Assembly (NCBI RefSeq): GCF_902493135.1
Contig: NZ_CABUOD010000024.1
Coordinates: 5,585 to 69,584 of the forward strand
Direction: 5' to 3'
Source: an uncultured Parabacteroides sp.
GTDB lineage: Bacteria > Bacteroidota > Bacteroidia > Bacteroidales > Tannerellaceae
DNA: 64,000 nucleotides
Shown: positions 2,682 through 62,570 of the stretch, piece after piece
Layout: every line of letters begins with the position of its first letter
Numbering within the stretch: position 1 is the stretch's first letter
Made by a program: the position numbers and the translations under genes
The notes under the pieces: model-generated
What the model was told of the DNA's origin: nothing
The model's input: only the letters and a program-made list of their open reading frames with translations
Databases searched by the model: none

Positions 2682-2785
2682 CTTTTTACTTTTAACACAT
2701 AATACTATAAAGACTAAAATAGCCGGCAATAATGATGTAGAATGATTATTACCGGCTAAAAGATTAACATTCGACTTTTATTTTA

Positions 2786-4336: not shown

Positions 4337-4349
4337 ACTATTAGTTCAT

Positions 4350-7300: not shown

Positions 7301-7709
7301 CCGTTCGTGTTTGTTGTTCGACGGCAGCGACAGTATTCACTTCTTTCGCAGACAATACGATATGCGTACCTTCCATCTCGTATTCGATACCAGCATTCTT
7401 GAACAGGTTATCCAATACCACTGAGACAGGTTTCGTTTTAGCCTTTACCGAAACTTTCCGGTTAACATCTATCTGATTATTATAGATAAACAAGTAATCT
7501 GTCTGGCTTTCAATCTCATCCAGAATCTTTTCTAACTGAGTATTGCTCTTGTTTATACTTACCCGGGCGTTCTGCGAATGCGAATTTTCAGCATACGAGC
7601 AGAATACACAGGCCCCCAAAAGGAATGTGGATATTCGCATAGTTCTCAAGATTTTTTTACCTGACGGGGTTTTCGGATAATATCCCCCCGACAAAAAGTT
7701 TTTTTTCAT
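4350..7709 (-). CDS. SusC/RagA family TonB-dependent receptor with N-terminal STN signalling extension (PUL1)
   Basis: 1119 aa. An STN-like segment (LEKILDEIESQTDYLFIYNNQIDVNRKVSVKAK...LFKNAGIEYEMEGTHIVLS) is followed by a carboxypeptidase-regulatory-like domain (VTGRIVD..GANVVVKGTTNGTVTDFDGNF), a plug, and a C-terminal barrel ending in NVTF. Confidence 0.92.
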   Translation of the reverse strand: MKKNFLSGGYYPKTPSGKKILRTMRISTFLLGACVFCSYAENSHSQNARVSINKSNTQLEKILDEIESQTDYLFIYNNQIDVNRKVSVKAKTKPVSVVLDNLFKNAGIEYEMEGTHIVLSAKEVNTVAAVEQQTRTVTGRIVDNMGEPIIGANVVVKGTTNGTVTDFDGNFSIEADSKSVLNISYIGYLTKEIIVGNEKTINVVLLEDTKALDEVVVIGYGTQKKADLTGSVANISTDDLNTQSNTTIGQALQGKIAGVDIVSQGGAPGGSTRVMVRGIGTLNNSSPLYIVDGMYMSGIDHINPNDIASIDVLKDASSAAIYGSRAANGVIIVTTKEGANTEGKPIVDLSANIGVTAPSKYLDLLDAAGWAEVSTISRKAAGLNPLEMAQDLASKPDNDWQDLMFGPALMQNYALSVKGGGKYTTYYNSVGYTNQDGVMKGTNYQRYTLQSKQDFKKGIFSAGTNVVLAYDQSNPLHSEVRGGMVGHTIQAIPTWEQYDASRVGGYGALYGDVVNLTHPLGMVDDNLMKRYNENVKIYANAYVSVEFMKGLKYKLNLTPDFQFYRYNNYNGVYDFGLATNGLTKVTEQQTRTRNVLVENLLTFDRTFGDHKISVLAGYTYQDSRYRYMQGSGQGMPAGIMEIDAAAQGLAVSGNSTRSVLTSILGRAFYSYKNKYLLTATIRRDGSSKFGSSHRYGNFPSVSAGWNVAEESFVKDNASWLDQLKLRGGYGVLGNQEISNYQFVSVVTTGINYPDGKSGLIQGAFPKTFANPDIKWEETAMTNVGIDFMALRNRLTLTADWYVKNTKDILLNVPIPISTGGANDPIRNAGKIRNKGIEFNVGWNESLNKDLSYGVSFLGTYNKNEVVEMGAESQAITGGTIHGGTYTSKTLAGYPIGGFWLIPVDGYFNSTEEVQAYQKDGVLIQPSAEPGDIRFKDTNNDGTINDEDRVYCGSPFPKFTYSINGNLTYKQVDFSIGFQGVAGNKIYNATRLQLDDVTRGTNYLASTLDYWTPENKNASHPRLIWTDPNRNARPESDRYLENGSYFRLRNVQLGYTFPNALFNGLIQKARVYFNAENLFTITSYSGYTPDVNSSNVYSRGFDEFIYPSNRTFMVGLNVTF

Positions 7710-7900
7710 ACCTTTGTAAATGATTTGAAGTTAATACAATGAATTAAAAAAATTGTGTTGATTGGAATGCCGGTAAATGCCCCCCAGCGCTTGCCGGCAT
7801 TTTTTGTTATTCCTTGTTTGTTTTCATGCCTCCTATTCTTTTATAAGGTTAATACTAATTATCGTGTTTTTTATTTTTGTTCTTTATATATTACTCGTGT

Positions 7901-8854
7901 TTATCTGATATAAATAATCTGATTTTCATCATCCCGCTCATATTTGAAGCGTATATCCTTCTGCAAGACCCTCAACGCGTAGTCGATGCCGTCTGCTTGC
8001 CTGAACTTCCCCGTGAAGAAATATTTCAGTACCTTTTTATTCTCCACCACTATGCTGACTCCGAAATATTTCTCCAGATCATTCATGATCGAGAGGAACG
8101 ATCCGTTCCGGAAGCATATCAACCCTTCTTTCCAACGATAAGGGTTATAATCGTCGACCGGAATGACTTTCAGTCTGCCGTCCTTTTGCAGGCACGCCTT
8201 GCTGTCCGGTTTCAGCGTCAACGTATCTCCCAGACCGATCCGCGAAGCGACCCGCACGCTTCCTTCCATCAACGTGACCTCAAAATCGTCTTTGCCGGAA
8301 TAGCCTTCCACGTTGAACTTTGTGCCCAATACTTCCATATTGCACTTGCCCGTTTCCACGATAAAAGGCCTTTTCGTATCTTTGGCTACATCGAAATAGG
8401 CTTCCCCGTCGACCGTGACCCGGCGTACGGACTTGTCGAACACAGCCGGATAAACGATCTTCGTCCGGGCATTCAGCCAGACATTCGTCCCGTCTGCCAA
8501 CGTGATGTTCACCCGTTGTCCGGCAGGAACATAAATGGACTGCATCGGCATTGCTCCGCCCTTATCCGAAACAAATTGATATAAGAAGCTAAGTCCCAAT
8601 GTCACAGCGACAACTGCCGCGATCTTGATTAACTCAGTTCCGAGAGGATTCAGGCTCCATGACTTGTTCCGTTTCTTCGCTTCGATCGTTTTTTCGTCAC
8701 CAAGAAGCAACATCGAGTCGAATATCTTTCTCTCTTTCAAGAATTCGCGTCTGTTTTCCGGGGAATGTTCCATCCATTGCCGGATCCGGACTTCTTCTTC
8801 ATAAGAAGCGGCTCCTTCAAAGAACTTATATAACGTTTCCCTGTCCATTTTCAT
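7901..8854 (-). CDS. FecR family anti-sigma factor (PUL1)
   Basis: 317 aa with an N-terminal cytoplasmic anti-sigma segment, one TM helix (IAAVVAVTLGLSFLY) and a FecR periplasmic domain (LADGTNVWLNARTKIVYP...EAYFDV). It sits directly upstream of the STN-SusC gene. Confidence 0.9.
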   Translation of the reverse strand: MKMDRETLYKFFEGAASYEEEVRIRQWMEHSPENRREFLKERKIFDSMLLLGDEKTIEAKKRNKSWSLNPLGTELIKIAAVVAVTLGLSFLYQFVSDKGGAMPMQSIYVPAGQRVNITLADGTNVWLNARTKIVYPAVFDKSVRRVTVDGEAYFDVAKDTKRPFIVETGKCNMEVLGTKFNVEGYSGKDDFEVTLMEGSVRVASRIGLGDTLTLKPDSKACLQKDGRLKVIPVDDYNPYRWKEGLICFRNGSFLSIMNDLEKYFGVSIVVENKKVLKYFFTGKFRQADGIDYALRVLQKDIRFKYERDDENQIIYIR

Positions 8855-9326
8855 CTTTTTACTTACACTTACATAATACTAACAGTTCACAAATTTATAT
8901 CCCTAGTTGAAAATGAAAAAAAATATTTTCTTTTTTTTATAACAAGTGTATGGCTTCCTCTGGGAATCCACTTTTCAGATGCTCATCGCTTCCCTAAAAG
9001 GTAGGCATCGGTTGCCCAATAGTGACTTGTACTGATCTACAGAGTTTCCAAGCTGTGTGAACTCTAATTAAATAAAATAACTAAGGGGAATTTAGGAAAT
9101 AATCCAAGAAGATTTAAACCGGTAAAGGCTCCAAATATTCTGAACATCGACATCTTGGCTCATTCGGTAATCGTTACATGATCTCGATGTCGTTTAAGAC
9201 ATATAACCACTTCTTGTAGTCGCCGGTCCTGCTTCAAACCGAGCATCTCTACATTGCGGAAACTGATGATAAGATATTAGCTTGCTTCACTGCCGAAAAT
9301 CTTTTTCCAGCCGTAATCCGAGAAGG

Positions 9327-9500
9327 GAAACAAAAGTCTCCGCAGTTGAAACTTTAGTTTCAAGGCGCGAAACTAAAGTTTCGATCGGTGAAACAAAAGT
9401 TTCCTCCGATGAAACTAAAGTTTCCCTCAAGTGAAACTAAAGTTTCAAGGTGAGCGACTACATGAAACTTTAGTTTCAAACTTTTTTTCGGCTGAAACTA
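9327..9500. repeat. Phased array of 14-bp palindromes GAAAC-N4-GTTTC (8 copies)
   Basis: Copies start at 9327 (degenerate), 9348, 9369, 9390, 9411, 9433, 9464 and 9494 (half site). Spacings are 21, 21, 21, 21, 22, 31 and 30 bp. Core variants are GAAACTAAAGTTTC, GAAACTTTAGTTTC and GAAACAAAAGTTTC. The array is non-coding (stops, no start). Confidence 0.9.
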
Positions 9501-9587
9501 TTGGGGATATTTTAAAATTACTCTCCAGGAAGATTCCGAAGCACTGAATGAAGTTGTGGCGAACTTCCGTTATTCTGATAAAAATAT

Positions 9588-9595
9588 TATATTTG
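9588..9595 (+). promoter_or_regulatory. Candidate Bacteroides -7 promoter box (TATATTTG)
   Basis: Perfect match to the TAnnTTTG -7 consensus, 19 nt upstream of the ATG at 9614. This supports the shorter start for the sigma gene. Confidence 0.45.
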
Positions 9596-9613
9596 CGACC
9601 ATACAACACAATT

Positions 9614-10198
9614 ATGCAGGAAGATGAAAGCAAAATAAAATGGAGTCAGTTCTTAGCCGGTGATAATGAAGCTTATTGTTGGATATATAAAGTCTACATA
9701 CAAATGCTGTTCCGTTACGGGCAGCGCTTTACTTCCGATACGGAGCTTATAAAAGATTGCATCCAGGATGTCTTTACCGGATTATACAAAAACAGGAAGC
9801 AACTGGTCACACCCAAAAATATAAAAGTCTACCTGCTTGTCTCCCTCAAGAACAGCCTGATCAATGCACTTTACCGGGAAGACCGCTACACGCCTTACGA
9901 TCATGAAACCGTTTCCTTTACCCTCGGACTGACGGTCGAAGAACAATATGTCACGGACGAACAGTACACCAACCAGCAAAAAAAGATACAGGAAATCCTG
10001 AACGTACTGACTCCGCGTCAAAAAGAGATTATCTACTACCGCTATATCCAAGAACTTAGCTTCGATGAAATCTGCATCATGATGGACATGAATTACCAAT
10101 CCGCACAAAACCTGATCCAGCGCTCCTTGAAGAAGATCCGCGACACATACGGGCCGATGGAAGTATTCCTCCTGCTCCTATCCGTTTCCGTCCAGTAA
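9614..10198 (+). CDS. ECF-type RNA polymerase sigma-70 factor (PUL2 regulator)
   Basis: Sigma-70 region 2 (DCIQDVFTGLYKN) and region 4 (LTPRQKEIIYYRYIQELSFDEICIMMDMNYQSAQNLIQRSLKKIR). A FecR gene follows. The ORF track starts at 9548, but MQEDESK at 9614 fits the promoter box. Confidence 0.9.
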   Translation: MQEDESKIKWSQFLAGDNEAYCWIYKVYIQMLFRYGQRFTSDTELIKDCIQDVFTGLYKNRKQLVTPKNIKVYLLVSLKNSLINALYREDRYTPYDHETVSFTLGLTVEEQYVTDEQYTNQQKKIQEILNVLTPRQKEIIYYRYIQELSFDEICIMMDMNYQSAQNLIQRSLKKIRDTYGPMEVFLLLLSVSVQ

Positions 10199-10263
10199 GA
10201 AAAATAAAAAAAATCCACTTCCGGTGAGTATAAAAAGGAAACAGCCTTGTCCTTTATATAATA

Positions 10264-11493
10264 ATGTTTACCGGAAAAATGGATAAAAACTATATAACAT
10301 ACACCGCAGACCAACTGCTGAACGACGACTTTTTCATACAGTCGGAATTGCACCCGACAGAAGAAAGCCGGGCCTTCTGGAGCGACCTTCAGACGAAGGA
10401 TGCCGCATTGTCCGGGGAGATCGAAAATGCCCGTCTCTTCCTGCATACCATTAAAATAGACAGAAATTGTTCATCCTTGTCAGACAAGGATGAACATGCG
10501 TTATGGCAACGCATCGAATTTGAAAACAAAGAAACGGAAAGAAGGGCGAAACGCAGACAATTCATCCGTTTCGCCATCGGGACGGCGGCCTCCCTTCTTT
10601 TGTTATCGGCAATCGGCTGGTATGCAACCCTGCGGCCGGAAGATACCGAAACAGACTATACGGCAATCCTCCAAGCCAATCCGGCGCCGGACAGTACAAA
10701 CAAAAAAGTGCAACTGGTCCTTTCGAACAACGAGAAGCTGACCATCGACGGGACGGAAACCCAACTCGAATATAAAAAGGAAGGAAAGGTAAACGTCAAC
10801 TCGGAACAAGTGGACCTCAGTCCGAAAGGCGATCCGGAGCAGGCACAGGAATTTAACCAACTGATCGTACCTGTCGGCCGGCGTTCGTCCATCACATTCG
10901 CCGACGGGACCCGGCTCTGGGTAAACTCCGGTTCGAAAGTCGTGTATCCGGTCAAGTTCGCAAAAGAGAAAAGGGAGATATTCGTAGAAGGAGAAATATA
11001 CCTGCACGTCAGCCGGGACGAACAAAAACCCTTCATCGTCAAGACACATCAGATGGATATAAAGGTGTTAGGGACGCAATTCAATGTCACGGCCTATGAA
11101 AACGAGGCGAACATGCAAGTGGTTCTCGTCAGTGGAAAGGTAGAAGTAAACCTCAACAACAAGAGCACGAATATCCTGGCTCCCAATCAGATGTTCTCTT
11201 ACGACAGCGATATGCACAGAGGCAAGATCAGCACGGTCGACACCGACGATTATGTGGCTTGGAAAGACGGATATTACCAGTTCCGCCAGCAACCGCTCAG
11301 AGAAATCGTGAAAAAGCTTTCCCGTTATTACGGCGTCCGTATCTATTGCGAAGAGCCGGCCGACAAGTTGTCTTGCAGCGGCAAACTGGACCTGAAAGAG
11401 AGTCTGGACGAAGTGATGAAGGCCTTGAAAGAAGCGGCTCCGATTCAAATAGAAAACAAATATGAGAGTGTAGAAATAAAAGTCAAACATTAA
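10264..11493 (+). CDS. FecR family anti-sigma factor (PUL2)
   Basis: 409 aa with a TM helix (AIGTAASLLLLSAIGWY) and a FecR domain (FADGTRLWVNSGSKVVYP..EGEIYLHV). It lies between the ECF sigma and the STN-SusC gene. Confidence 0.9.
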   Translation: MFTGKMDKNYITYTADQLLNDDFFIQSELHPTEESRAFWSDLQTKDAALSGEIENARLFLHTIKIDRNCSSLSDKDEHALWQRIEFENKETERRAKRRQFIRFAIGTAASLLLLSAIGWYATLRPEDTETDYTAILQANPAPDSTNKKVQLVLSNNEKLTIDGTETQLEYKKEGKVNVNSEQVDLSPKGDPEQAQEFNQLIVPVGRRSSITFADGTRLWVNSGSKVVYPVKFAKEKREIFVEGEIYLHVSRDEQKPFIVKTHQMDIKVLGTQFNVTAYENEANMQVVLVSGKVEVNLNNKSTNILAPNQMFSYDSDMHRGKISTVDTDDYVAWKDGYYQFRQQPLREIVKKLSRYYGVRIYCEEPADKLSCSGKLDLKESLDEVMKALKEAAPIQIENKYESVEIKVKH

Positions 11494-42451: not shown

Positions 42452-43918
42452 CTACTCAAAACTATCAAACAGTTGATTATCCGCCTCTTTCTTACGTAAT
42501 TCGTCCAAATTGGCCGCTGCCCCCTTCACTCCGGCAGCTTTTGCCTGTTCCAACAACTTTCCTGCCTCATCCAGGTTTCCTTCCAGCAGATTCAACACGC
42601 CGCGGGCATGTACCGCTTCGGGACTGTTGCCAGCCTTAGCCAGATACGTACGGGCTGCCTCCAGGTCGTGTTTCGACAAGGCGATATTGGCTGCGTTCAG
42701 GTTGGCGACAGGATCATCGCCGTACATGCGGACCGCAATCTCGAACACCTCGTTATAGTCCTTGCTGCCGATCTCGTAGCTGTTGGCCACCGCGAACATT
42801 TCGCTCAAGCTCAGCTGCTGCGGACGCGTCTTGATAATCTCGCGGCCTTCCTCAACCGTAAAGAAACGCACCTGGTAAGCGACACGGTAGTCGGAACGGC
42901 GCAACGAAGGATAGATATTCTTCAACACATACCGGTAAGGAGCCCCTCCGTCCAGAGCTGCCAGCTTGGCGTCTTTCTTGTCCGGGTCGTCATTACTGTC
43001 GATGATAGCCAGCACAGCCTCCCGCGAAGGGACGCTCCGGTCGGCCTCCACTTTCGCTTTCAGGCCTTCCCAATCTTCGGAACCGTTTTCCAGCGTGAAA
43101 AGCTCCGGTTTGAAGTCATGCTTCTTCCTTATATATTCGGAAAGCGCTTTCACACGATTGCCGGCCAGGACCGTATTGGACTTGTAGCTGCCTTCGGGCG
43201 AAGCAAAACCTTTCAGGATAATGCCTTCGAGCGTGATGTTCTTATCGTTTACGACCGTACTGATCGTATTGTCGATCTTCGCCAGTTCCACCGCATTGTT
43301 ACGGAAATCCGGCAGGATCGCATATTTGCCCACCTGGAAATCCAGATAAGCAGTCCCCACCTCGGCACGATGTTTTACCGTTTCCGCTTCCGGAGAGATA
43401 TAAGCCAGGGTAGGCTGTACCTCATACCGTTTGTCGGGACGGGTCAGGACCTTGTCGGCTATCACGAGCGGCGTGCCCTGCGCCTCTTTGCCGCAACCGC
43501 ACATGTTCGGGACCAGCACGAAACGGGCGTCTTTCATCCACGCTTCAAACGGGATTACCGTCTTATAGTTGATGACGCTTTCGCTCTTTCCGGCCTGCAC
43601 GACCAGGAAGCGAGGCTCATCCTGCAAATTGTTCAACGCGATCTCGCGGTCGTACACTTTCTGGCTGATCCGCCCGTTCAGCAAGATGGAAGGCAAGCCC
43701 TCTTTCTGCGAAGCCGATTCCAAGACCGGTGTCAGGGAGAGATTCTCACGGGATTTGATCTGGCTGCCGTCGACCGTGATCACGGCATCGATCAGCAATT
43801 CGTTTCCTTTTTGCTTCAATTCGTTACAAACCACTTTTACCGGAGCCTGAGCCAGGATAGCCGGCGAAACGACAGCCAACAGAGCTGCCGCCATATATAA
43901 TTTCATTGTTTTCTTCAT
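42452..43918 (-). CDS. DUF3868-like secreted protein with an OmpA-like peptidoglycan-binding module and C-terminal TPR repeats
   Basis: 488 aa with a signal peptide, a central GFASPEGSYKSNTVLAGNRVKALSEYI (OmpA_C-like) segment, and a C-terminal helical TPR-like region (ALSKHDLEAARTYLAKAG...LLEGNLDEAGKLLEQA). It is paired with a DUF3575 gene. Confidence 0.7.
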   Translation of the reverse strand: MKKTMKLYMAAALLAVVSPAILAQAPVKVVCNELKQKGNELLIDAVITVDGSQIKSRENLSLTPVLESASQKEGLPSILLNGRISQKVYDREIALNNLQDEPRFLVVQAGKSESVINYKTVIPFEAWMKDARFVLVPNMCGCGKEAQGTPLVIADKVLTRPDKRYEVQPTLAYISPEAETVKHRAEVGTAYLDFQVGKYAILPDFRNNAVELAKIDNTISTVVNDKNITLEGIILKGFASPEGSYKSNTVLAGNRVKALSEYIRKKHDFKPELFTLENGSEDWEGLKAKVEADRSVPSREAVLAIIDSNDDPDKKDAKLAALDGGAPYRYVLKNIYPSLRRSDYRVAYQVRFFTVEEGREIIKTRPQQLSLSEMFAVANSYEIGSKDYNEVFEIAVRMYGDDPVANLNAANIALSKHDLEAARTYLAKAGNSPEAVHARGVLNLLEGNLDEAGKLLEQAKAAGVKGAAANLDELRKKEADNQLFDSFE

Positions 43919-43926
43919 AGCGCCGA

Positions 43927-44493
43927 TTATTTAATAAAGTAAATGATAGAAAGAGCAGCCTTCGTCACCCCGAAATAATCTTTCGTCTCGCTCTTCTGAA
44001 CCGTACCGCACGATGCGCACGGATATTTATCATAGTCCAGGTGCGCCCATCCGATACCGATCACCGCCTCCATGCTCCAACGATTGCTCAGCAGCCACTG
44101 GTAGCCATAGGACAGTCCGGCTCCGTAGAGGTTGCCCTGGTACCGGTAATTCTCCATATTTTTACTCAGGAACTTGATCCCGCCGACATTATAATCGGCA
44201 TAATGGGCATGCACCCCGAGAAAATGGCCGTTAAACTTCTCACATAGCCAATAACGTGCTTCCGGCTGGACCATCCAATGTTTCCAACGCATGTCGTCGC
44301 CGAACTTCCATCCGTTGTAGTTACCGGACAAGTCCAGCGTCCACTTCTTGCTCAATCCCATCTCAACACCGAGGTTGATCGTCGCAGTCGCGTCGTACAG
44401 CAAGTTTGACTTTACCGCAAACTTCTGCCCATAGACGTTCGTCATTCCGGCCAGAAGCAAAAAGAGGAAAAGTACTTTTTTCATACACTTCAT
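43927..44493 (-). CDS. DUF3575 family outer-membrane beta-barrel-like protein
   Basis: 188 aa with a signal peptide, then AVKSNLLYDATATINLGVEMGLSKKWTLDLSGNYNGWKF ... VQPEARYW ... GHFLGVH, which matches my recollection of DUF3575. Confidence 0.8.
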   Translation of the reverse strand: MKCMKKVLFLFLLLAGMTNVYGQKFAVKSNLLYDATATINLGVEMGLSKKWTLDLSGNYNGWKFGDDMRWKHWMVQPEARYWLCEKFNGHFLGVHAHYADYNVGGIKFLSKNMENYRYQGNLYGAGLSYGYQWLLSNRWSMEAVIGIGWAHLDYDKYPCASCGTVQKSETKDYFGVTKAALSIIYFIK

Positions 44494-44850: not shown

Positions 44851-45102
44851 ATGAGGATTATTAGCAGTCGTGAATTTAATGACAATCAAAAGTTGTACTT
44901 TGACTTGGCAGATCAGAATGAACAAATTATTGTCCAAAGAGGAAAAGACAAGGCTTATATGCTTATCCCCATTACCGAGTCAGATAGATTGTCGACAAGT
45001 TCTGCTCTGATAAACAAGATCAGAGATGCCGAAAGAGCCATTCGCGAAGGAAATACGACAAAAATCAACGATATTGATAATATATGGGAAAGTATTCTAT
45101 AG
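44851..45102 (+). CDS. Type II antitoxin, Phd/YefM-like
   Basis: 83 aa with an N-terminus MRIISSREFNDNQKLYFDLA..IIVQRGKDKAYMLIP resembling Phd/YefM. It overlaps the downstream YoeB-like toxin gene by 19 nt. Confidence 0.7.
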   Translation: MRIISSREFNDNQKLYFDLADQNEQIIVQRGKDKAYMLIPITESDRLSTSSALINKIRDAERAIREGNTTKINDIDNIWESIL

Positions 45103-45365
45103 AAATTGAAAACGAAGCCAAGAAAGAACTTGCAGCCCATTACAAATCGGGAGACCGGAAAACGATCAAACGAATTGAGAGGATATTTAAGGAGTTAGCG
45201 GAAACGCCTTATGACGGCATAGGTTCGCCCGAACCCCTTAAATATGAACTTTCCGGATATTGGTCAAGACAAATAAATAAAAAAGACAGGCTTATCTATA
45301 GAGTAAAAGAAGAAACCATTACCATCTACATCGTCTCCGCCATAGGTCATTATGACGACAAATAG
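45084..45365 (+). CDS. Txe/YoeB family type II toxin (mRNA interferase)
   Basis: 93 aa. The segment PEPLKYELSGYWSRQINKKDRLIYRV ... GHY aligns with E. coli YoeB ([26 protein letters not shown] ... YHY). Confidence 0.88.
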   Translation: MGKYSIEIENEAKKELAAHYKSGDRKTIKRIERIFKELAETPYDGIGSPEPLKYELSGYWSRQINKKDRLIYRVKEETITIYIVSAIGHYDDK

Positions 45366-51450: not shown

Positions 51451-51484
51451 AACCCTAATATTTTTTCCATTTAACTTACGAAGG

Positions 51485-51492
51485 CAAAAGTA
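51485..51492 (-). promoter_or_regulatory. Candidate -7 promoter box (TACTTTTG on the minus strand) for the 378/520/960-aa pilin operon
   Basis: The reverse complement of CAAAAGTA matches TAnnTTTG, 35 nt upstream of the ATG at 51450. Confidence 0.4.
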
Positions 51493-51739
51493 GGGGGAAT
51501 ATCAAGAGGGGGCGATAGGCGAAACTTTCAAGATTAATAGGTAAAAATACCAGAGGAAAGATTGAGAGGCGTACCCTTTAAATGCGATAGAAATAACTAC
51601 AAAACAGGTGATTCTGATAGGAAAGAAGGCGAAAAGGAGAGATTTACGGATTTTAATAGAATTACCGTTATTTATGAAAGGTTTGGCTATGCAATAGTAT
51701 CGTGGGGATTAATAGAAATGTCAGAAGATTGGCTGAAAA

Positions 51740-52402
51740 TTAAAACAGAGCCTGTAGCCCGTCAGCCATAAGAGCGGACAAGATAGCGGCTAAGATGACC
51801 AAAAAGAGCCATAAAACACAACGGCTTGCGAATACAAGCGCTGCCTTAAAGCGTTCTTTACGAATATGCCCGGCCTGCCTGTCAAACAAGATTTCCAATT
51901 TCCGGTATTGTAAATAGCTTTCTTCAAACAATTTCATCGATTTTTCCGTGTCCTTCGACTCTTCTATTTTAGCCGTAAAAACTGCCTTTACCGCATACCT
52001 CTTCAAATCACGGTAAGAAGTCCATTCCGTACCAGAACCCATTTTTAATGGATCCATATACTTCATTTTCTTTTCATATCTTTTCACCGTATCCGACAAA
52101 GAAGCATTCAGTTGTTTAAAACAATCCAGAATCAGACGCCGGATGTGACCCTCCGCCTTATCTATTTCTTTCTTCTGCCTCTCGATTTCTTTATGCTTCA
52201 TCTCCGGATCATTTAAATCGATGGAACAATCATAATAGCAACGGGCTATATGATCGTTAAAAGCCCTGATTTCATTTTGCAAAGCGTGACTTATTTTGCC
52301 CGAACGCACCTCGACTTCGATTAGCAGCGGCTTGACCACCTCATTGTAGCTTTGGTACAAACCTTTCACACGCTCCCGATCTTTTTTTTCTAAAATCAAC
52401 AT
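51740..52402 (-). CDS. Uncharacterised tail-anchored helical membrane protein (paralog B of the cassette)
   Basis: 220 aa with no signal peptide, a long charged helical region, and a single C-terminal TM (LVFASRCVLWLFLVILAAILSALMA). It is clearly paralogous to the upstream 215-aa ORF (YNEVVKPLLIEVEVR / YNKEIKPLVAEIEAR; NEIRAFNDHIARCY / AEIFFFNDYMANGY). Confidence 0.7.
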   Translation of the reverse strand: MLILEKKDRERVKGLYQSYNEVVKPLLIEVEVRSGKISHALQNEIRAFNDHIARCYYDCSIDLNDPEMKHKEIERQKKEIDKAEGHIRRLILDCFKQLNASLSDTVKRYEKKMKYMDPLKMGSGTEWTSYRDLKRYAVKAVFTAKIEESKDTEKSMKLFEESYLQYRKLEILFDRQAGHIRKERFKAALVFASRCVLWLFLVILAAILSALMADGLQALF

Positions 52403-52407
52403 AAGCC

Positions 52408-53055
52408 CTATTTATTTAGAATTGAAAAAAGATAAGATTTAACCTCGCTTGGATAAAAAAAGGAAACGACAGCGGATATCAATATAGGAAATATCCAAAT
52501 AAAAAGTTTACTTTTGAAAGATAAATGATACATGGAAACGGCGCGATTCACTTCGCAACTTTTAAGATTGAGGAAATCCTCCAACTTTATATAATCTTGA
52601 TAAGCATCCTGATATAAAGTCAAAGCCTCGGTGGCAGAGAGCCACCTCTCCCTCTCCTTTGCTAACATCAATTTGGATTCTGCTGATTTCTTCATCCTTG
52701 TATATTCCTTGAAGAAAGAGCCGTCATTGATAGCATTCAAATCTACATTCCGGGTTTGTTCTTCAAAAAGCTCTATCACCAAAACTAATGCTGCATTCAA
52801 ATATACATACAAATATAATTTGAGCTGTGTCAGGTGCTTCAAAGCCAACTCTATCGATTCGTCATATTCTTTTTCGGTAACGGATTCACGATACCCATTC
52901 GCCATATAATCATTAAAGAAAAAAATTTCCGCCAACAAAGGTTCTGGAAATTCTTCAAACCGAGCTTCTATTTCAGCTACTAACGGTTTGATTTCTTTAT
53001 TATATAATGTATACAGTGCTTCTCTCTGGCGTTCTATTTCATTTTCAGGTATCAA
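52408..53055 (-). CDS. Uncharacterised tail-anchored helical membrane protein (paralog A of the cassette)
   Basis: 215 aa with no signal peptide, a helical region, and a single C-terminal TM (LFIWIFPILISAVVSFFY). There is a 5-nt gap to the next gene. Confidence 0.7.
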   Translation of the reverse strand: MIPENEIERQREALYTLYNKEIKPLVAEIEARFEEFPEPLLAEIFFFNDYMANGYRESVTEKEYDESIELALKHLTQLKLYLYVYLNAALVLVIELFEEQTRNVDLNAINDGSFFKEYTRMKKSAESKLMLAKERERWLSATEALTLYQDAYQDYIKLEDFLNLKSCEVNRAVSMYHLSFKSKLFIWIFPILISAVVSFFYPSEVKSYLFSILNK

Positions 53056-53057
53056 AG

Positions 53058-53303
53058 CTACTTCAGATATTTACAAATGATCCGTCTAACGTCCTCCAAA
53101 CTCAAAATCCTTCCTAAATACAGATATACAGAACCTCTCGGAGAAAGATGTTTTGTTCCCTTATGACTGAACTTCTTCTTATTTATAGCTGATATGGATC
53201 CGATAATATCAGAGATAGGCCTTGTGGTCAATGCATTATAATCCAACCCTGTAGATTCATGCAGAAGTTCTTTAGTCTCTATACTTAATTTAAAGTCAGT
53301 CAT
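53058..53303 (-). CDS. Uncharacterised small basic protein (81 aa), first gene of the cassette
   Basis: An ORF with a 2-nt gap to the next gene and its own upstream -7 box. I recognise no motif. Confidence 0.55.
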   Translation of the reverse strand: MTDFKLSIETKELLHESTGLDYNALTTRPISDIIGSISAINKKKFSHKGTKHLSPRGSVYLYLGRILSLEDVRRIICKYLK

Positions 53304-53356
53304 TTTTTATCTGTTACAATTTGGGGAACAAAGATACGCTTATTTCTTTATGCTCA

Positions 53357-53364
53357 CAAATATA
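53357..53364 (-). promoter_or_regulatory. Candidate -7 promoter box (TATATTTG on the minus strand) for the three-gene cassette
   Basis: The reverse complement of CAAATATA matches TAnnTTTG, ~54 nt upstream of the ATG at 53303 and downstream of the terminator of the preceding pilin operon. Confidence 0.4.
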
Positions 53365-53438
53365 ACGCATAATTCCTTAAAGTGTTTCATAATAAAGTGC
53401 TTAATATTCCAAATATGATATTATTTAAATCTGCTACA

Positions 53439-53478
53439 CAAAAAAACAGGCAACCCGTGTGAATGGATTGCCTGTTCC
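53439..53478 (-). terminator. Rho-independent terminator after the 417-aa pilin gene
   Basis: The minus strand reads AACAGGCAA-N14-TTGCCTGTT followed by TTTTTTT (stem 53445-53453 / 53468-53476; A-run at 53439-53446 on the plus strand). Confidence 0.7.
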
Positions 53479-54800: not shown

Positions 54801-55919
54801 CTATTTTACTACTGCTTCCTGGTTGACAGGGCCCCATCCTACGACTTCAACATTCACGCTCAAGCCACCTGTGGAAGGGGTCGGGGGTGTGGGAGGATCA
54901 GGAGGGGTCGGGTCATCGATGTCGATGCCTTCGAAACTGTTCGGGCCGAAAGTGATGTTCAGGCGGTAGATGTAATTCCGTTTCACATACTTATGGGGAT
55001 CCCCTTTCAATACGACCCCGTTCTCATTGATGGTAGCGGCAAACTCTTTTGTTTCTGCCTGGTAGTCGGCGTTCGCCAGGATGGTAGCGTTCACGACAAG
55101 CTGTGTCGGATTGCTGCTGTCCGTATTTTCCATCACATACTGGTAGAAAGGCGTTCCGGAGAGCGGAAGGTCCTGTCCCAAAGTGACAGCAGCACTATTA
55201 TCCGTATTCCCGTCGACCATTACTGCGCCCCAGTAAGCCGTGCTGGCAAAACGGGAGGCGGTTTTCCGGTTGGCGAAATAGATGCTGTTGATGCGGACGG
55301 TACGCCCTCTCAACCTGCTGTTCGTTCCGAAATCGGTCGATGCGCTCCTCAGTTCGATGCGGGCAGCCAGACGGGTCAGTTCCAATGGGGAAGAGATATT
55401 GTTGATGTTGGTCTGCGTCGCATATCCGATATAGTTATCGCCTTCATCCAACCGGTCGTTGGAGGCAATCACCTGGGCGCTCATGGCAAGGTTTGACTGC
55501 GACTGGTCGGACAGCTGCGCCAGACGGCCTTGGAAATCACTGTAGGAAGTCACTCCGCTGAAAGCGTTCGCCGGGACATTGGCAAGGATGGCGATGATGG
55601 CATTCGTCGCTTTTGTCGGGACGTTCAGCACGGTGGCTTCTCCGCCGGAAGCAGACATGCCGTCCGTCCAATAAGGATCGGCCAATATCTGCGAACCGTC
55701 GGCGGTAAATGAAAGAACCGCCACGTTATTTATATTTGTCTCGCCGGAAAGGGCATTATTGTCACCATCCGCCTTCGTCGTCCCCGAAGCAGAAGCTTTC
55801 ACCGAGATATTCAGTTTCGCATCCTTCAGGTCTTTCACATTCACCGGCTGGCTGTCTTTCGAACAGCTCGCCAAGGCGAACAACGACAAACCGACTGCTA
55901 TTATATTTCTTATTTTCAT
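54801..55919 (-). CDS. FimA/Mfa-like type V pilin lipoprotein with a proline-rich pre-C-terminal linker
   Basis: 372 aa with a lipobox (FALASC), LNISVKASASGTTKADG, LAARIELRS, then DDPTPPDPPTPPTPSTGG followed by LSVNVEVVGW. Confidence 0.72.
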   Translation of the reverse strand: MKIRNIIAVGLSLFALASCSKDSQPVNVKDLKDAKLNISVKASASGTTKADGDNNALSGETNINNVAVLSFTADGSQILADPYWTDGMSASGGEATVLNVPTKATNAIIAILANVPANAFSGVTSYSDFQGRLAQLSDQSQSNLAMSAQVIASNDRLDEGDNYIGYATQTNINNISSPLELTRLAARIELRSASTDFGTNSRLRGRTVRINSIYFANRKTASRFASTAYWGAVMVDGNTDNSAAVTLGQDLPLSGTPFYQYVMENTDSSNPTQLVVNATILANADYQAETKEFAATINENGVVLKGDPHKYVKRNYIYRLNITFGPNSFEGIDIDDPTPPDPPTPPTPSTGGLSVNVEVVGWGPVNQEAVVK

Positions 55920-55938
55920 ATCTGTACTTCTTTAGAGA

Positions 55939-56865
55939 TTAAAATATCATATCCTCTTCGACTACTCCCCACGGAGTGATACGCATCTTGGCCGAAATGG
56001 TGCCGTCTTCGCCGAACAGGAGCAGCACGTCCAAACGGCCGCCTTCGGGAATTTCGAACGGATCGCCATTGTCGTCCACATAAACGGTCTTGTTGACCGA
56101 GCCGTCTTTGCTGGTGATCGACACGCCGAGATTTTCACCGGCAAAGGAGTTCTGCTTACCGCCAAACTGATCTTGGTCGATAACGCCCGTCGTCAACCAT
56201 TCCTGCGCCGTGTCGTAAGTGCCTTCAGGATTGTAGGCGACGCTGTCGCCATCCAGCGAACCGGCGTTGTCATACACGCTCAAGGTGCGGTTGATATAAA
56301 AATCGAAATCCGACGCGCTTCTCAACCCGTAAGCCTTCAAGGCGTTGTTCAGGCCGGAGGTCTTGATCGTGTAAGTCCCGGTTTTGAGGCGGATCACCAC
56401 CTGGCCGTCTCCACCGACGATGCCGCTGCCGAGCGAAGTCACTTCTTTCGTCCCGAAATAGAGGCTGTCGGGAGATTGTGCGAACCCGTCTTCCGAACTT
56501 TTCAGCTGCACCTTCAGGTCTTCCAGCTGCTTCGGGTCGGTAACCGACTGGTTGCCTCCTTTGAGGTTCCCCCAGGCCACGATGTTCAGTTTCGTATGGT
56601 CCGGATAGTTATCCAGCCTGATGGCTTCTTTCGACAGGATGAAATCTTTATCCAGATTACGTGTCTCAAGCAATTTCTTGTTTTCATCGAAGATATATAG
56701 GGTGGCATCTTCCACCAATCCCAGACTGGTGATATCCGTGATATCCGTGCGGTTCAGCCCTTCGACCTTCAACGTCAGTTTGCTACATTCAGCCAGATCA
56801 TCTTTGATGCAACCGGTGAGCATGACTGCAAGCGCACCTGCCGCCAGCAAAAGAGACTGTTTCAT
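55939..56865 (-). CDS. FimB/Mfa2 family fimbrial anchor subunit
   Basis: ~308 aa from MKQSLLLAAGALAVMLTGC. It has a double-Cys start (C..DDLAEC), ATLYIFDENKKLL, DSLYFG and a C-terminal RITPWGVV. It lacks the TK processing motif of the stalk-type pilins. The ORF track extends to 56925. Confidence 0.75.
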   Translation of the reverse strand: MKQSLLLAAGALAVMLTGCIKDDLAECSKLTLKVEGLNRTDITDITSLGLVEDATLYIFDENKKLLETRNLDKDFILSKEAIRLDNYPDHTKLNIVAWGNLKGGNQSVTDPKQLEDLKVQLKSSEDGFAQSPDSLYFGTKEVTSLGSGIVGGDGQVVIRLKTGTYTIKTSGLNNALKAYGLRSASDFDFYINRTLSVYDNAGSLDGDSVAYNPEGTYDTAQEWLTTGVIDQDQFGGKQNSFAGENLGVSITSKDGSVNKTVYVDDNGDPFEIPEGGRLDVLLLFGEDGTISAKMRITPWGVVEEDMIF

Positions 56866-56921
56866 ACATGTTATATGTTTCATAATGCTATATTTATATC
56901 TTATTATTACCCTATTCCACA

Positions 56922-58301
56922 TCAATCGACATCTTCTTTGATGTCAATCACATTCCAGTCTGCCACCTTAACCTGTGCTGCTACATGCGCGAAAGCGGCA
57001 GGAGTGAACGGATCATTCGAACCGGAACCCAATATCTGCACGGTCACGTTATATTTGGTGTTGCGCTGGATATGGACATAGTGTTCGCCGCTACCGTCGA
57101 TCGTTCCGCCCTGATTCTTATCATTGATGATAACCGTGTAGTAGCGGTTGTTTTCGGTAACCAGTTCGCTATCACCGATCTTATAGATATAAGTACCTCT
57201 CAGGACCAACAAGGTGTAATTATGTTTTCCTGTTTCACCTGTTTCATCTATTTCACCATTTTGGTTCGGGTAGACATAGAAGGGAGGAATATTAATGTTC
57301 TCCCAATCAAGATTTACATTCGTTCCTGTCCCAGCTTGTATTGTTATAGCTGACTCCAGAGCCCGTAACATTGAATCATCGCCTGTAGCCACTCCTGTCT
57401 TATAGGTACCGGTATGGAGAGCATATTTTTCAGGAGCTAAATAATATGTAAGATCAATTTTTCCATCTTTCAACGGTGCCTGTTCGATGGTTTTAACATC
57501 ACCAAACGTTCCGATCCCGGCCGTACTCTTCACATTGGCAACAAAAACAGAATCCAATGTAAAACTTACATTTTTATAATTCGAATTTCCTTTATCCGGT
57601 GTCTCCGGCAACAAAACGCCCTTCAGATTGATGGCGGCAACCGTACGGGTCAGAACAACGGGGTTGTTACCATAGATTTCTGTTCCTGTGCCATAGCCTT
57701 CCACTGTTAATGCACCTGTTTCTCCAAATCCCACGAAGTTTATCCCCGGAACAAGCTTAAGCGGCAATACGGCACTACTCATCGTAAGTCCCTTGTCGTC
57801 CGTTTCGGAAGAGAGAGGCGTTGCAAGTTCAAGCACGCCTTCTACACTCAAACGTTTATTCGGGTCGGTACTGTTGACCGAATTTGTCAACTCTTCCAAT
57901 ACACCGGCATCCAAGTTTGCGATCAGCAACAAATGAATGTCCCCGGATTTCACTTCTCCCTCAATTACAGTTTCATTTGCAGGATTCGTATAGTTCTGCG
58001 TGAAAATGGCAGCAATACGACCTTCAAGAATATTGCTTTCAGCAGGATATGCCCCATGATTAAAGATCACCGCCGTCAACGTCTTCACTTCAAAATCCCA
58101 AGTGGGCTTTCCCTCAACGGCAGCATCGCCTTCTATAAATCCGCCTTTCGTCTTTACCCTATTATCCGTCTGGACAGCCAGTGACAACGTTGCATCCGGC
58201 ACGACAGGCGTTATCGTCAGATTCACCGGGTCGTCATTGTCCGAGCATGAAAAGAATGCACAGGCCATTAATGTTATCAAAAAGCAACTTTTCAGTTTCA
58301 T
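56922..58301 (-). CDS. FimA/Mfa1-like type V pilin lipoprotein (first gene of the operon, stalk candidate)
   Basis: 459 aa with a lipobox (CAFFSC), LSLAVQTDNRVKTKGG, and a C-terminal AAQVKVADWNV. Confidence 0.72.
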   Translation of the reverse strand: MKLKSCFLITLMACAFFSCSDNDDPVNLTITPVVPDATLSLAVQTDNRVKTKGGFIEGDAAVEGKPTWDFEVKTLTAVIFNHGAYPAESNILEGRIAAIFTQNYTNPANETVIEGEVKSGDIHLLLIANLDAGVLEELTNSVNSTDPNKRLSVEGVLELATPLSSETDDKGLTMSSAVLPLKLVPGINFVGFGETGALTVEGYGTGTEIYGNNPVVLTRTVAAINLKGVLLPETPDKGNSNYKNVSFTLDSVFVANVKSTAGIGTFGDVKTIEQAPLKDGKIDLTYYLAPEKYALHTGTYKTGVATGDDSMLRALESAITIQAGTGTNVNLDWENINIPPFYVYPNQNGEIDETGETGKHNYTLLVLRGTYIYKIGDSELVTENNRYYTVIINDKNQGGTIDGSGEHYVHIQRNTKYNVTVQILGSGSNDPFTPAAFAHVAAQVKVADWNVIDIKEDVD

Positions 58302-60503: not shown

Positions 60504-62570
60504 TTAAACTGGAATCCCGTATTGTGAAGGCGTAACTCCGTATTGCTCGGTAAAGCGTTTGCGGAATGTGGCTGTATCGTTGAATCCTACCATTTCAGCG
60601 ACTTCCTGGACGGAGTATTGCTGGCTGGCAAGCAGTTCGGCGGCTTTTTTCAGTCGTATGTTGCGCGTCAGTTCGAGGATGCTCAGATCGGAGTACTGCT
60701 TAATCTTGCGGTACAGGGTCGGCAGGCTCATATTCAATGAGTCTGCGAGTACTTTTGCTTCAAAAGTAGAGTCATCGAGGTGTTTCTCTATGTTTTTGAC
60801 GACGGCGTCCATGAACGGGTTGGTCGGCAGCGTGCTGTCTTCATCTTTCGAAGTGGCGGAAGAAGCAGAGAAGTAGCGTTTCATATCGTCGCGTTTCTTC
60901 ATCAGGCTGTTGATCTTGCTTCGCAGGATTTCCACGTCGAAGGGTTTCGTGATGTAATCGTCCGCGCCGGCTTCGATACCGGTGATCACGTCTTCGCTCT
61001 CGACTTTGGCCGTCAACATCACGACAGGCGTCTGCGCCATCTTGGGCTCCCGCTTGATTTCGCGGCAGGTCTCGTAGCCGTCTTTCACCGGCATCATGAC
61101 GTCGCAAAGGATCAGGTCCGGCTCCTCTTTCAAGGCGACGTCGATCCCGTCCTGCCCGTTGCGGGCTTCCAGTATCTGGTATTCCTTGTTAAAGACGTGC
61201 TTCAGGAACCAGCGGATCTGGTCGCTGTCGTCGATCACCAGGAGCTTCTTGCCGGTTTCCTTCTTTTGCGGGATCACCTGGATCAGTTCGGCAATCTCTT
61301 CTTTCTGACGGGCGTTGAGCTTGACCAGGTCCGATTCGGGTTCTACGAATTCGACACGGCGGTCCAACAGATGTTGTTTGCCGAGCGGGATCATGATCGT
61401 GTAGGAGGTGCCGTTCTTATCCGATTCGCTCCGGTATTTACCGCCTATCGCGTCGGCCATGTCTACGATCTGCTTCAGGCCGCGGCGTGCGCTTTCGTCC
61501 TCGTCCAGGCCCTCGTCTGTCACGACTACCGCGCTGTAGGCTTTGCCGTCTTCACTCACGACGGATATGTCGAGCGTCACTTTCCCATAGGCAAACGTAT
61601 TTTTGAAGGCATTCGACAGCAGCATACGCAAAGCGAACTCCATCTTGCGGCGGTCCAACCAGACCCAAAGGGCGGGCGTCTGCGTGTTGATGCGGAAATC
61701 GACGTTGTTCATGGCCACCCAATCGACGAAGATATCGCAGATCTGGCGGGCAATCTCGACCATGTCGTAACGGGCTATGCGCAGGTAGTTGGCGACATCG
61801 TTCGAACGGCGCGTACCGATCAGCTGGTCCGCCAGGTCCTGCATGGCAAGCGTATTACGGTAGGCCGAAAGCAACTGGGTAGACATGTCTTTCCCCGGAT
61901 CGTCGTTCTGCACCACCAGGGCAAGGGAACCCAACACCAAGGATAGCGGGGTGCGCATTTCGTGGATCGTCTCGATAAAGAAGTTGTCGTGGATGCTCTC
62001 GGCGTCTTTCAGGCGGTTTTCCGCTTCGGCAAGTTTGTCGGCGGCCTCGCGCTGGATCGTATCGTTTTCCTTGATCTTGGTGACGATGAGTTGTTCCAAC
62101 TCTTTCTTATTATTATTCAGAGTGGAGATCGTCAATTCCAGCTCGTTATTCTTCCGGACCAATTCACCATTGGCGTGCGCCAGATCGTCATTCTGCTTCC
62201 GTAAGGCCCGGTATTTTTCTTCATGTTGCTCGATTTGCCCTTCCAGCGACTTATTCCGGGTATTAAGTTCTGCGTTCCGGGCATTCAGGTTTTCGTTTCG
62301 GGCATTCATTTCCTTGTTCTGACCTTCAAGCGCGACGTTTTCCTTTATGATCCGATCCGAACGGTCGCTCATGCCGGAATGCAGTTTCCTCACGTAAAAA
62401 AACAGGGGGACAAAGAAAAGCAGTAGGGCAACCACTACAATCAATGTCTCACTCTCGAATAGTTTTCCATTTTCATTGGCAGCTAAGATTAATGAAGTAC
62501 TGAGAAAAAGGCCAGTCAATACTCCACTCACCCTCCTGAACAGAGATTTTTTCTTCATATTTATATGCAT
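60504..62570 (-). CDS. Hybrid sensor histidine kinase / response regulator with a C-terminal AraC-type HTH (no periplasmic sensor domain)
   Basis: 688 aa. It has two TM helices around a ~17-aa loop, a long coiled coil, an H-box (IHEMRTPLS), an N-box (LLSNAFKNT), REC (LLVIDDSD...LILCDVMMP...ITKPF) and an AraC HTH (LPTLYRKIK...VGFNDTATFRKRFTEQYGVTPSQY). Confidence 0.9.
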   Translation of the reverse strand: MHINMKKKSLFRRVSGVLTGLFLSTSLILAANENGKLFESETLIVVVALLLFFVPLFFYVRKLHSGMSDRSDRIIKENVALEGQNKEMNARNENLNARNAELNTRNKSLEGQIEQHEEKYRALRKQNDDLAHANGELVRKNNELELTISTLNNNKKELEQLIVTKIKENDTIQREAADKLAEAENRLKDAESIHDNFFIETIHEMRTPLSLVLGSLALVVQNDDPGKDMSTQLLSAYRNTLAMQDLADQLIGTRRSNDVANYLRIARYDMVEIARQICDIFVDWVAMNNVDFRINTQTPALWVWLDRRKMEFALRMLLSNAFKNTFAYGKVTLDISVVSEDGKAYSAVVVTDEGLDEDESARRGLKQIVDMADAIGGKYRSESDKNGTSYTIMIPLGKQHLLDRRVEFVEPESDLVKLNARQKEEIAELIQVIPQKKETGKKLLVIDDSDQIRWFLKHVFNKEYQILEARNGQDGIDVALKEEPDLILCDVMMPVKDGYETCREIKREPKMAQTPVVMLTAKVESEDVITGIEAGADDYITKPFDVEILRSKINSLMKKRDDMKRYFSASSATSKDEDSTLPTNPFMDAVVKNIEKHLDDSTFEAKVLADSLNMSLPTLYRKIKQYSDLSILELTRNIRLKKAAELLASQQYSVQEVAEMVGFNDTATFRKRFTEQYGVTPSQYGIPV

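Follow-up and report, generated by a model that had tools for sequence, protein, structure and literature searches.

A mobile gene pair encoding a tail-anchored helical protein, found as a three-gene cassette in a Parabacteroides pilus locus: a candidate toxin-antitoxin or abortive-infection module

What are three small genes that resemble no pilus component doing between two pilin operons? The question is raised by a stretch of DNA of 64,000 nucleotides from an uncultured Parabacteroides sp. (assembly GCF_902493135.1, contig NZ_CABUOD010000024.1, positions 5,585 to 69,584), referred to below as the window, that includes a type V pilus locus and, within it, a minus-strand cassette at 51740-53303. 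An earlier note, made from the sequence alone, had proposed that the cassette is an autonomous and compositionally foreign module for defence, abortive infection or toxin immunity. That first reading proves to be broadly right in direction, with three corrections: the unit that travels is a gene pair, to which a duplication has been added in this lineage; membership of the large proteins in the HEPN superfamily, offered as a speculative cue, is unsupported; and the cassette is accessory to the pilus locus. We consider the odds about even (a probability of roughly 0.5) that the pair is a mobile accessory module of an undescribed toxin-antitoxin or abortive-infection type with a tail-anchored effector. 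The genes, with lengths in amino acids (aa), are

53058-53303, minus strand: small gene, 81 aa, candidate antitoxin or regulator
52408-53055, minus strand: degenerate large paralog, 215 aa, TTG start codon, tail-anchored
51740-52402, minus strand: canonical large gene, 220 aa, tail-anchored predicted helical bundle, candidate effector

A gene pair that travels as a unit

The three open reading frames are separated by gaps of only 2 and 5 nucleotides (nt), exactly as the earlier note had placed them, and both the homologs found and dN/dS ratios of 0.10-0.20 establish that they are real genes. Word-indexed searches with the three proteins recovered only 19, 5 and 6 relatives; an exhaustive profile search with an alignment of the large protein returned 939 cluster representatives (clusters at 50% identity), almost all of them 195-240 aa long, at E ≤ 1e-3, with 161 at E ≤ 1e-30. 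The family is mostly from Bacteroidota, human-gut species included, and the pair occurs in at least six phyla, the loci spanning Bacteroidota, Bacillota, Spirochaetales (Spirochaetota), Planctomycetota, Ignavibacteria, Carboxydocellales and Syntrophomonadaceae. The window itself matches Parabacteroides hominis NSJ-79 at 99% identity.

In 41 of the 42 loci that we examined, taken from metagenomes and 24 reference genomes, a homolog of the small gene lies directly upstream of the large gene on the same strand, and the stop and start codons often overlap (4 nt). Pairwise distances of small and large proteins are correlated with r = 0.75 in a mirror-tree comparison, a value that was reached by none of 2000 permutations. 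The core unit that travels is two co-diverging genes, coding for proteins of ~80 aa and ~210 aa, and not three. The sole exception is a locus of an uncultured Syntrophomonadaceae (L039:1839-2477) with no recognisable small gene upstream of the large one, where the preceding 340 nt are AT-rich and contain stop codons in every frame. In three further cases an intact small gene stands beside a large gene that is split or truncated (L040:2666-3297, L041:528-1161 and L042:6670-7065). Such broken copies are expected if the large protein is harmful, and could reflect inactivation of a harmful gene or an error in metagenome assembly.

The earlier note had left it to a neighbourhood analysis to decide whether the three genes travel together and whether they sit in defence islands or in fimbrial loci. 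The module is indeed mobile, and its contexts include integrative elements and genes matched by defence models; what recurs, though, is the small gene plus one large gene, with the trio confined to a subfamily. No neighbouring gene is conserved around the pair across the loci. Some elements that bear an integrase contain the pair or have it at their end (L001 and L005), and in L023 it lies downstream of a gene matching only the SAM-like domain of phage integrases. Elsewhere it is flanked by SIR2-domain and DegT genes, one on either side (L036), or likewise by ManC-like and KilA-N genes (L026), or it adjoins AAA_14/DUF4143 genes (L028 and L042) or a gene with an NADase-translocation domain (L004). 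PADLOC matches among 57 flanking proteins are to BrxD (2), SngB (2), ThsA, LmuA, PDC-S01 and PDC-S22, and matches to YoeB and KilA-N are also seen among the neighbours of the pair elsewhere. In Plebeiibacterium sediminum (L001/L019, approximately positions 1-11300) the pair ends a run of about ten co-oriented genes without a Pfam match (84-708 aa); a YbjQ-like gene and a tyrosine integrase come next, and the whole is an uncharacterised integrative element.

In capsule-synthesis loci (L006-8 and L013-16) the pair is located just upstream of the initiating glycosyltransferase, which may be another preferred insertion point in Bacteroidales. Two of these loci, L006:8713-9321 and L013:9577-10611, are unrelated, and in each the module directly precedes a transferase of the Bac_transf or Glycos_transf_4 type; a DUF6016 gene is present downstream in both, right after the transferase in L013 and two genes further on in L006.

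The pilus locus of the window provides a view of the same site with and without the module. The sequence that makes the comparison possible is

51451-51700, minus strand: right boundary, outside the cassette; conserved leader, with promoter, of the downstream pilin operon (TACTTTTG box, 51485-51492)

This ~250-nt stretch, which separates the stop codon of the 220-aa gene from the next pilin gene, varies far less among orthologous loci than the coding sequences do, and since it aligns with empty sites up to the pilin start codon it is the leader of the downstream pilin operon and lies outside the cassette. The -7 box that had been assigned to the restart of that operon is present, within a leader that is kept in every related pilus locus. 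A 27-mer from the leader retrieved 11 metagenome loci, and all of these represent the same pilus locus, since their Fim1C-like gene is 61-88% identical (86-88% in most). Only one of the 11 (L047) carries the cassette; seven are demonstrably without it at the gap and three (L050, L051 and L054) are contigs too short to cover it. Between the FimA stop codon and the next pilin start there are 345 nt where the gap is empty (L044, L045, L046, L048 and L053), ~1.4 kb where it holds a PD-(D/E)XK transposase (L049 and L052; Pfam E 6.5e-52) and ~2.05 kb where it holds the cassette (the window and L047); in total the cassette is seen at this gap in the window, L018, L043 and L047. In cassette-free loci L044 and L045 the leader is ~90% identical and is found directly behind the FimA gene. 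Between loci the cassette proteins are 57-79% identical, as against 41-45% for the flanking pilins. As these alleles demonstrate, the cassette is an accessory part of the pilus locus, and the gap with its leader looks like a recombination anchor and insertion hotspot.

The leader itself lies upstream of a 378-aa pilin gene and is ~90% conserved across strains, compared with 25-45% identity for the pilin genes on either side. The possibility that it is an RNA encoded by the cassette was rejected, with a fold z-score of 0.01, no covariation, no Rfam match and the leader occurring apart from the cassette in 10 of the 11 loci.

The tail-anchored protein, its degenerate paralog and the small partner

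Four features of the large proteins are needed in what follows (TM, transmembrane; numbering throughout is that of the 220-aa protein):

51764-51820, minus strand: TM helix of the 220-aa protein (Kyte-Doolittle 19-residue maximum 2.78), followed by a 7-residue tail
52450-52506, minus strand: C-terminal TM helix of the 215-aa protein
52235-52276, minus strand: invariant block 1, NEIRAFNDHIARCY, residues 43-56, containing R46-x4-H51
52115-52159, minus strand: invariant block 2, KAEGHIRRLILDCFK, residues 82-96

The N-terminus of both large proteins is free of hydrophobic segments and the extreme C-terminus has one, in agreement with their earlier description as proteins that lack a signal peptide and end in a single TM helix. 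The 220-aa protein terminates in CVLWLFLVILAAILSALMA plus 7 residues and the 215-aa protein in LFIWIFPILISAVVSFFYP plus 13. A C-terminal TM segment is present in 125 of 136 family members, degenerate paralogs included, with a median of 14 residues beyond it. In an AlphaFold2 model of the 220-aa protein, built from a 19-sequence alignment (mean pLDDT 89.5, pTM 0.77), helices are predicted for residues 6-34, 39-56, 66-112, 124-147 and 152-219, the last of which continues into the membrane segment.

Conservation was computed over 136 full-length representatives, and positions that are 80-100% conserved include Y19, P25, L26, E31, P38, N43, E44, R46, D50, H51, R54 and C55, followed by A83, H86, R89, D93, K96, G124, F126, A144, K145 and E148. 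Block 1 contributes N43 (96%), E44 (99%), R46 (99%), D50 (86%), H51 (98%), R54 (84%) and C55 (80%), and these are identical in 27 canonical proteins from across the phyla; block 2 contributes A83 (95%), H86 (100%), R89 (99%), D93 (98%) and K96 (99%). The 27 canonical proteins share 16 identical positions, the R-x4-H pattern among them, at an overall identity of only 30-40%. Judging from the model, the conserved residues of helix 3 would share one helical face, with a spacing of i, +3, +7 and +10. While the TM sequence is poorly conserved, cytoplasmic helices 2 and 3 are nearly invariant, and a set of charged and polar residues so dense and so constant points to catalysis or highly specific ligand binding rather than to a purely structural role.

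The 215-aa protein is clearly a paralog of its neighbour, with 26% identity over 203 aa (BLASTP, E 2e-20), and the motifs that had been quoted in support of this are correct: where the 220-aa protein reads NEIRAFNDHIARCY, the 215-aa protein reads AEIFFFNDYMANGY. Eight of the 16 identical positions, N43, R46, H51, R54, C55, R89, D93 and K96, have been lost, and Y19, P25, E44, D50, H86, G124, A144, K145 and E148 are retained. The substitution of both R and H, noticed at the outset for this one protein, turns out to be systematic across degenerate copies. Y19, P25 and D50 are kept by all four degenerate copies that were compared, each of which has the C-terminal anchor; E44, H86, G124, A144 and E148 are kept in the three copies from the pilus locus and mostly replaced in a more decayed copy from a capsule locus (L013). 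The ratio dN/dS is 0.13-0.17 for the degenerate copy, 0.11 for the canonical one and 0.10-0.20 for the small gene, values that are approximate as dS is near saturation. By this measure all three genes are under purifying selection, the degenerate copy not decaying.

The three-gene form is found in this pilus locus (the window, L018, L043 and L047), in orthologs (L009-12 and L017) and in one capsule locus (L013-16), and the gene order is invariably small gene, degenerate paralog, canonical paralog. A neighbour-joining tree groups the canonical copies from three-gene loci in one clade and the degenerate copies in a second. This fits an origin of the trio as a subfamily from a single ancestral duplication, with long-branch attraction among the degenerate copies possible. 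Because the degenerate paralog keeps the fold, the anchor and the selection and not the site, it is most simply seen as a non-catalytic partner, and it is probably a subunit that associates with the canonical copy. A protein of 328 aa (P0003, from a Logan contig of 1874 nt) aligns at 74% identity with 64% of the 215-aa paralog and at 66% identity with 89% of the 220-aa paralog, and is either a natural fusion of the paralogs or an artefact of gene calling or a frameshift.

The small protein is conserved at F4, L6, T18-G19 and in the block R56-G-S-V-Y-L-x-L-x-R65. Its AlphaFold2 model has a pLDDT of only 61, which makes Foldseek matches of the small protein uninformative. A profile alignment with the winged-helix regulator 3r0a, over the recognition helix and wing, is weak and not significant (E 0.2), and a match to L21e (E 0.0046) was set aside as limited to the RGSVYL strand region.

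That none of the three proteins resembles a pilin or any family that can be named was proposed in the beginning, and has been borne out by searches against Pfam, NCBIfam, PADLOC and PHROGs and by sequence-profile searches of the PDB, none of which gave a significant match; no housekeeping family could be assigned from profiles or structures. The best matches in PADLOC-DB 2.0 are partial (LeoBC, E 0.0011; PbeC, 0.0045; PDC-M49B, 0.012). Foldseek comparisons of the 220-aa model returned nothing significant from the PDB (best E 0.46) or from BFVD (best E 0.67), and the matches, generic long-helix proteins with TM-scores mostly of 0.15-0.35 (maximum 0.40), were discarded. Also discarded were the alpha-SNAP and MIT helical-hairpin matches that make up all of the PDB profile results for the large family (E ≥ 0.1), which are noise, and a match to DUF842 (E 4.5e-5, under the gathering score) that is seen in 1 of 19 members, covers an insertion specific to the window and was judged to be due to chance. 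Literature searches (HEPN-TM, DUF2096, metagenomic defence selections) found no description of the family.

The sole hint of a remote relative is DUF2096_N (PF23100), a four-helical bundle. Weak matches (E 0.0025-0.09) were obtained for five members, all in one register, with residues ~19-105 aligned to positions 7-90 of the 96 in the profile, a region that spans both invariant blocks. The scores, however, are 13.6-18.6 bits against a gathering threshold of 26 bits, and the family is uncharacterised, with no mention found in the literature searched, and adds no mechanism.

Candidate functions of the pair

Several properties together lead us to read the pair as a selfish or conflict-type module: the strict pairing of the genes, their translational coupling, their co-divergence, a patchy spread across phyla, polymorphic presence at one and the same site, insertion both in variable loci and in integrative elements and a promoter of its own. 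In the mechanism that we propose the effector would be the ~210-aa protein, its five-helix bundle lying in the cytoplasm, tethered to the inner membrane face by the single C-terminal helix and carrying an invariant polar site made up of N43, E44, R46, D50, H51, R54 and C55 on helix 2 and H86, R89, D93 and K96 on helix 3. The ~80-aa soluble protein would be the cognate partner that silences the effector and possibly represses the operon, with silencing ending upon its loss or displacement, for example on infection. In the Parabacteroides lineage one duplication of the effector gene would have taken place, the upstream copy losing the polar site and keeping the fold, the anchor and purifying selection.

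The closest parallel is with type II toxin-antitoxin systems such as YefM/YoeB (44851-45365), which are also short, co-oriented and coupled gene pairs with the small gene first and a promoter of their own, spread patchily by horizontal transfer, inserted in variable loci or integrative elements and occasionally left with a broken large gene; as in those systems, an adjacent small and larger gene are inherited as a unit (41 of 42 loci, r 0.75). The differences are that the pair has no similarity to toxin or antitoxin families catalogued in Pfam, NCBIfam, PADLOC or PHROGs, that the putative toxin is a tail-anchored membrane protein of 200-220 aa and that none was found in the plasmid and phage collections searched. 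With the two-gene abortive-infection and defence systems of PADLOC the pair shares a small operon, one TM protein and, for some copies, a position beside genes for BrxD, a ThsA-like SIR2 protein or an LmuA-like protein; here no model matches and most copies are outside recognisable defence islands.

A number of points weigh against such a module. Homologs among known toxins, antitoxins and defence proteins are lacking (PADLOC best E 0.001-0.01), and a DNA-binding or antitoxin nature of the small protein is conjecture. Relatives are absent from GenBank phages, from PLSDB plasmids (searched in protein mode) and from IMG/VR contigs, which is unusual for a classic addiction module; the DNA of the cassette was likewise not found in plasmids. 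Many of the neighbours are plain housekeeping or polysaccharide genes, and the recurrence in capsule and pilus loci could indicate a surface-related function rather than a recombination hotspot.

Should the pair be a conflict system, a sizeable unannotated family, of at least 939 clusters, would be added to the toxin-antitoxin and defence repertoire, with an effector of a type for which the solved (PDB) and predicted viral (BFVD) structures searched offer no precedent. The enzyme/pseudo-enzyme duplication would offer a handle on how the effector assembles, as would the empty-site, transposase and cassette alleles at one gap, and an insertion hotspot beside a conserved leader bears on the reshuffling of surface-structure loci in gut Bacteroidales. 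Candidate conflict modules of a similar kind are numerous, so that interest is moderate until a phenotype is shown. More tentatively, the pair might found a new toxin-antitoxin/abortive-infection family whose effector is a tail-anchored helical-bundle enzyme with a catalytic site (E44, R46, D50, H51, R54, C55, H86, R89, D93 and K96) that is related neither to HEPN nor to any nuclease fold so far described, and in which enzyme and pseudo-enzyme have become an obligatory pair in one lineage. The recurrent insertion into capsule and pilus loci could be a sign that the module monitors or exploits the phage-receptor loci of Bacteroidales.

The alternative that survives best, doubtful as we find it, is that the large protein is a divergent, possibly circularly permuted, membrane-tethered HEPN RNase that acts as a dimer cleaving RNA at the inner face of the membrane, the 215-aa copy being the inactive partner. 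R46-x4-H51, the pattern that had first suggested HEPN, is the best conserved feature of the family (99% and 98%), and both residues are lost jointly in every degenerate paralog; E44 lies two residues ahead of R46, the fold of the 220-aa model is all-helical, TM-fused HEPN domains and a circularly permuted KEN domain are known (PMC3710099) and a HEPN-TM defence system exists (PMC11087260; PMC12948488). With the HEPN superfamily and the HEPN-TM system of phage-inducible chromosomal islands the pair would also have in common a nearby acidic residue, a membrane tether, a mobile context and a motif-less partner (PMC3710099). Membership nevertheless fails on the position of the motif, on the residue next to it, on profiles and on fold. 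HEPN domains are defined by R-x4-6-H at the end of core helix 3 and the start of the loop to helix 4 of a four-helix up-down bundle, with a polar N, D or H right after the R (PMC3710099), whereas in the AlphaFold2 model the motif lies inside helix 2 (39-56), with a single helix before it, so that only a putative KEN-like circular permutation could reconcile the two, and position 47 is the non-polar A or S throughout (IRAFNDH or IRSFNDH). No HEPN-type Pfam family is found at E ≤ 1 for 19 members and no HEPN structure is among the best 50 Foldseek matches in the PDB (best E 0.46), noting that Foldseek is weak on all-alpha folds. About 10-11 further invariant residues have no counterpart in the HEPN signature, and the TM helix is C-terminal; the comparison with HEPN-TM is by description only.

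The pair could instead be a membrane-tethered regulatory switch, in which the tail-anchored protein sequesters a putative DNA-binding small protein and releases it on a signal to control surface operons for pili and capsule, a scenario that we regard as unlikely. Its appeal lies in the position of the pair, in or at the edge of capsule loci (L006, L013, L026 and L036) and, in a type V pilus locus, immediately ahead of the promoter of an operon, together with the weak alignment of the small protein with winged-helix regulator 3r0a (E 0.2) and an N-terminal pattern that would be compatible with a ribbon-helix-helix or helix-turn-helix fold. The likeness to DNA-binding proteins is not significant, however, and the pair is also found in integrative elements, beside housekeeping genes and outside Bacteroidota. 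In cassette-free pilus loci the same leader is present at ~90% identity, so that the operon is independent of the pair, and a sequestering scaffold is not expected to require 16 invariant polar residues.

Distinctly improbable, in our estimate, is an effector that kills by damaging the membrane, with the bundle oligomerising and the C-terminal helices clustering into a pore in the manner of holins or of abortive-infection TM effectors, and the polar site serving as a sensor or a partner-binding surface. The single C-terminal TM helix (125 of 136 members, with the degenerate paralogs) would be accounted for, and the top Foldseek matches are the alpha-pore-forming toxins AhlB, SmhB, MakA and ClyA; yet these matches are at the level of noise (E 0.46-4, TM-score about 0.2), the external tail is only 7-14 residues long and it is the TM sequence that varies and helices 2 and 3 that are near-invariant.

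A dedicated role in pilus assembly or in the gating of pilus export, which the earlier note had kept in play, is the least likely reading of all, with 7 of 11 leader loci demonstrably lacking the cassette and the pair present outside Bacteroidota, to our knowledge the only phylum with type V pili. Components of type V (FimA/Mfa) pili are marked by a lipoprotein signal peptide and a pilin fold; in the cassette proteins no hydrophobic segment is seen at the N-terminus, the model of the 220-aa protein is all-helical and no pilin profile matches.

Boundaries of the cassette and the surrounding pilus locus

At its 5' end the cassette is bounded as follows:

53438-53478, minus strand: intrinsic terminator of the upstream pilin operon, left boundary of the cassette
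53329-53364, minus strand: promoter region of the cassette, with Bacteroidetes-type -7 boxes TATATTTG (53357-53364) and TATCTTTG (53329-53336)

The gene 5' of the cassette encodes a FimA/FimD-like pilin of 417 aa and ends in a terminator hairpin, which is real: 12-nt arms (53445-53456 and 53465-53476) that are 92% complementary, an 8-nt loop and then a run of T. An equivalent hairpin and T-run is found behind the FimA gene in the orthologous locus L017. Both boxes fit TAnnTTTG, a pattern with 65 matches in the window where 42.6 ± 5.8 are expected, and since it is common there a match alone is weak evidence for a promoter. Both boxes, of which TATATTTG had already been recognised, are invariant in L009 and L017 together with the bases close around them; in these orthologous loci GTTATATTTG and GTAyCTTTGTnCCCnAAATTGT are invariant and the flanking DNA diverges. 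The claim of a separate transcription unit is thus sustained by the 5' terminator and a promoter box conserved in orthologs, whereas no convincing terminator was found 3' of the 220-aa gene, so that the autonomy of the cassette is demonstrated for its 5' end only.

Just 5' of the -7 box, at 53378-53406 on the minus strand, there are two tandem 14-nt direct repeats, TATTAAGCACTTTA and TATGAAACACTTTA, with a spacing of 15 nt, with a third, similar copy overlapping the start codon. A role as an operator is possible but doubtful, the repeats at 53378-53406 being only partly kept in L009 and L017 and overlapping the expected -33 region.

Two further statements about the surroundings have to be withdrawn. 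The GC content of the cassette is 37.9% and that of the window 46.2%, but the pilin genes on either side are at 37-40%; the composition of the cassette is therefore not distinct from that of its direct surroundings, and rather than a foreign island it is part of a low-GC block of ~10 kb. Secondly, the toxin-antitoxin pair that had been placed next to the cassette is real (YefM and YoeB, Pfam E 1.3e-6 and 5.5e-22) but is 6.4 kb away, beyond three pilin genes. This Phd/YefM-YoeB pair (44851-45102 and 45084-45365) is on the plus strand, opposite to that of the pilus locus within which it lies, and sits between a 960-aa pilin gene and DUF3575/DUF3868 genes as a second module of mobile type.

The genes neighbouring the cassette match FimA, Mfa2, Fim1C and FimA4_C. 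The pilus locus as a whole (42452-62570) is bounded by a response-regulator/AraC gene (60504-62570) and by the DUF3575/DUF3868 genes (42452-44493) and is a mosaic in GC content, with 51-53% for the Fim1C-like and Mfa2 genes (54801-56925) and 37-45% for the other pilin genes. Fim1C is 86-88% identical in most related strains, while neighbouring FimA-like alleles are ~40% identical. The mosaic and the contrast between Fim1C and FimA suggest that pilin cassettes undergo allelic replacement.

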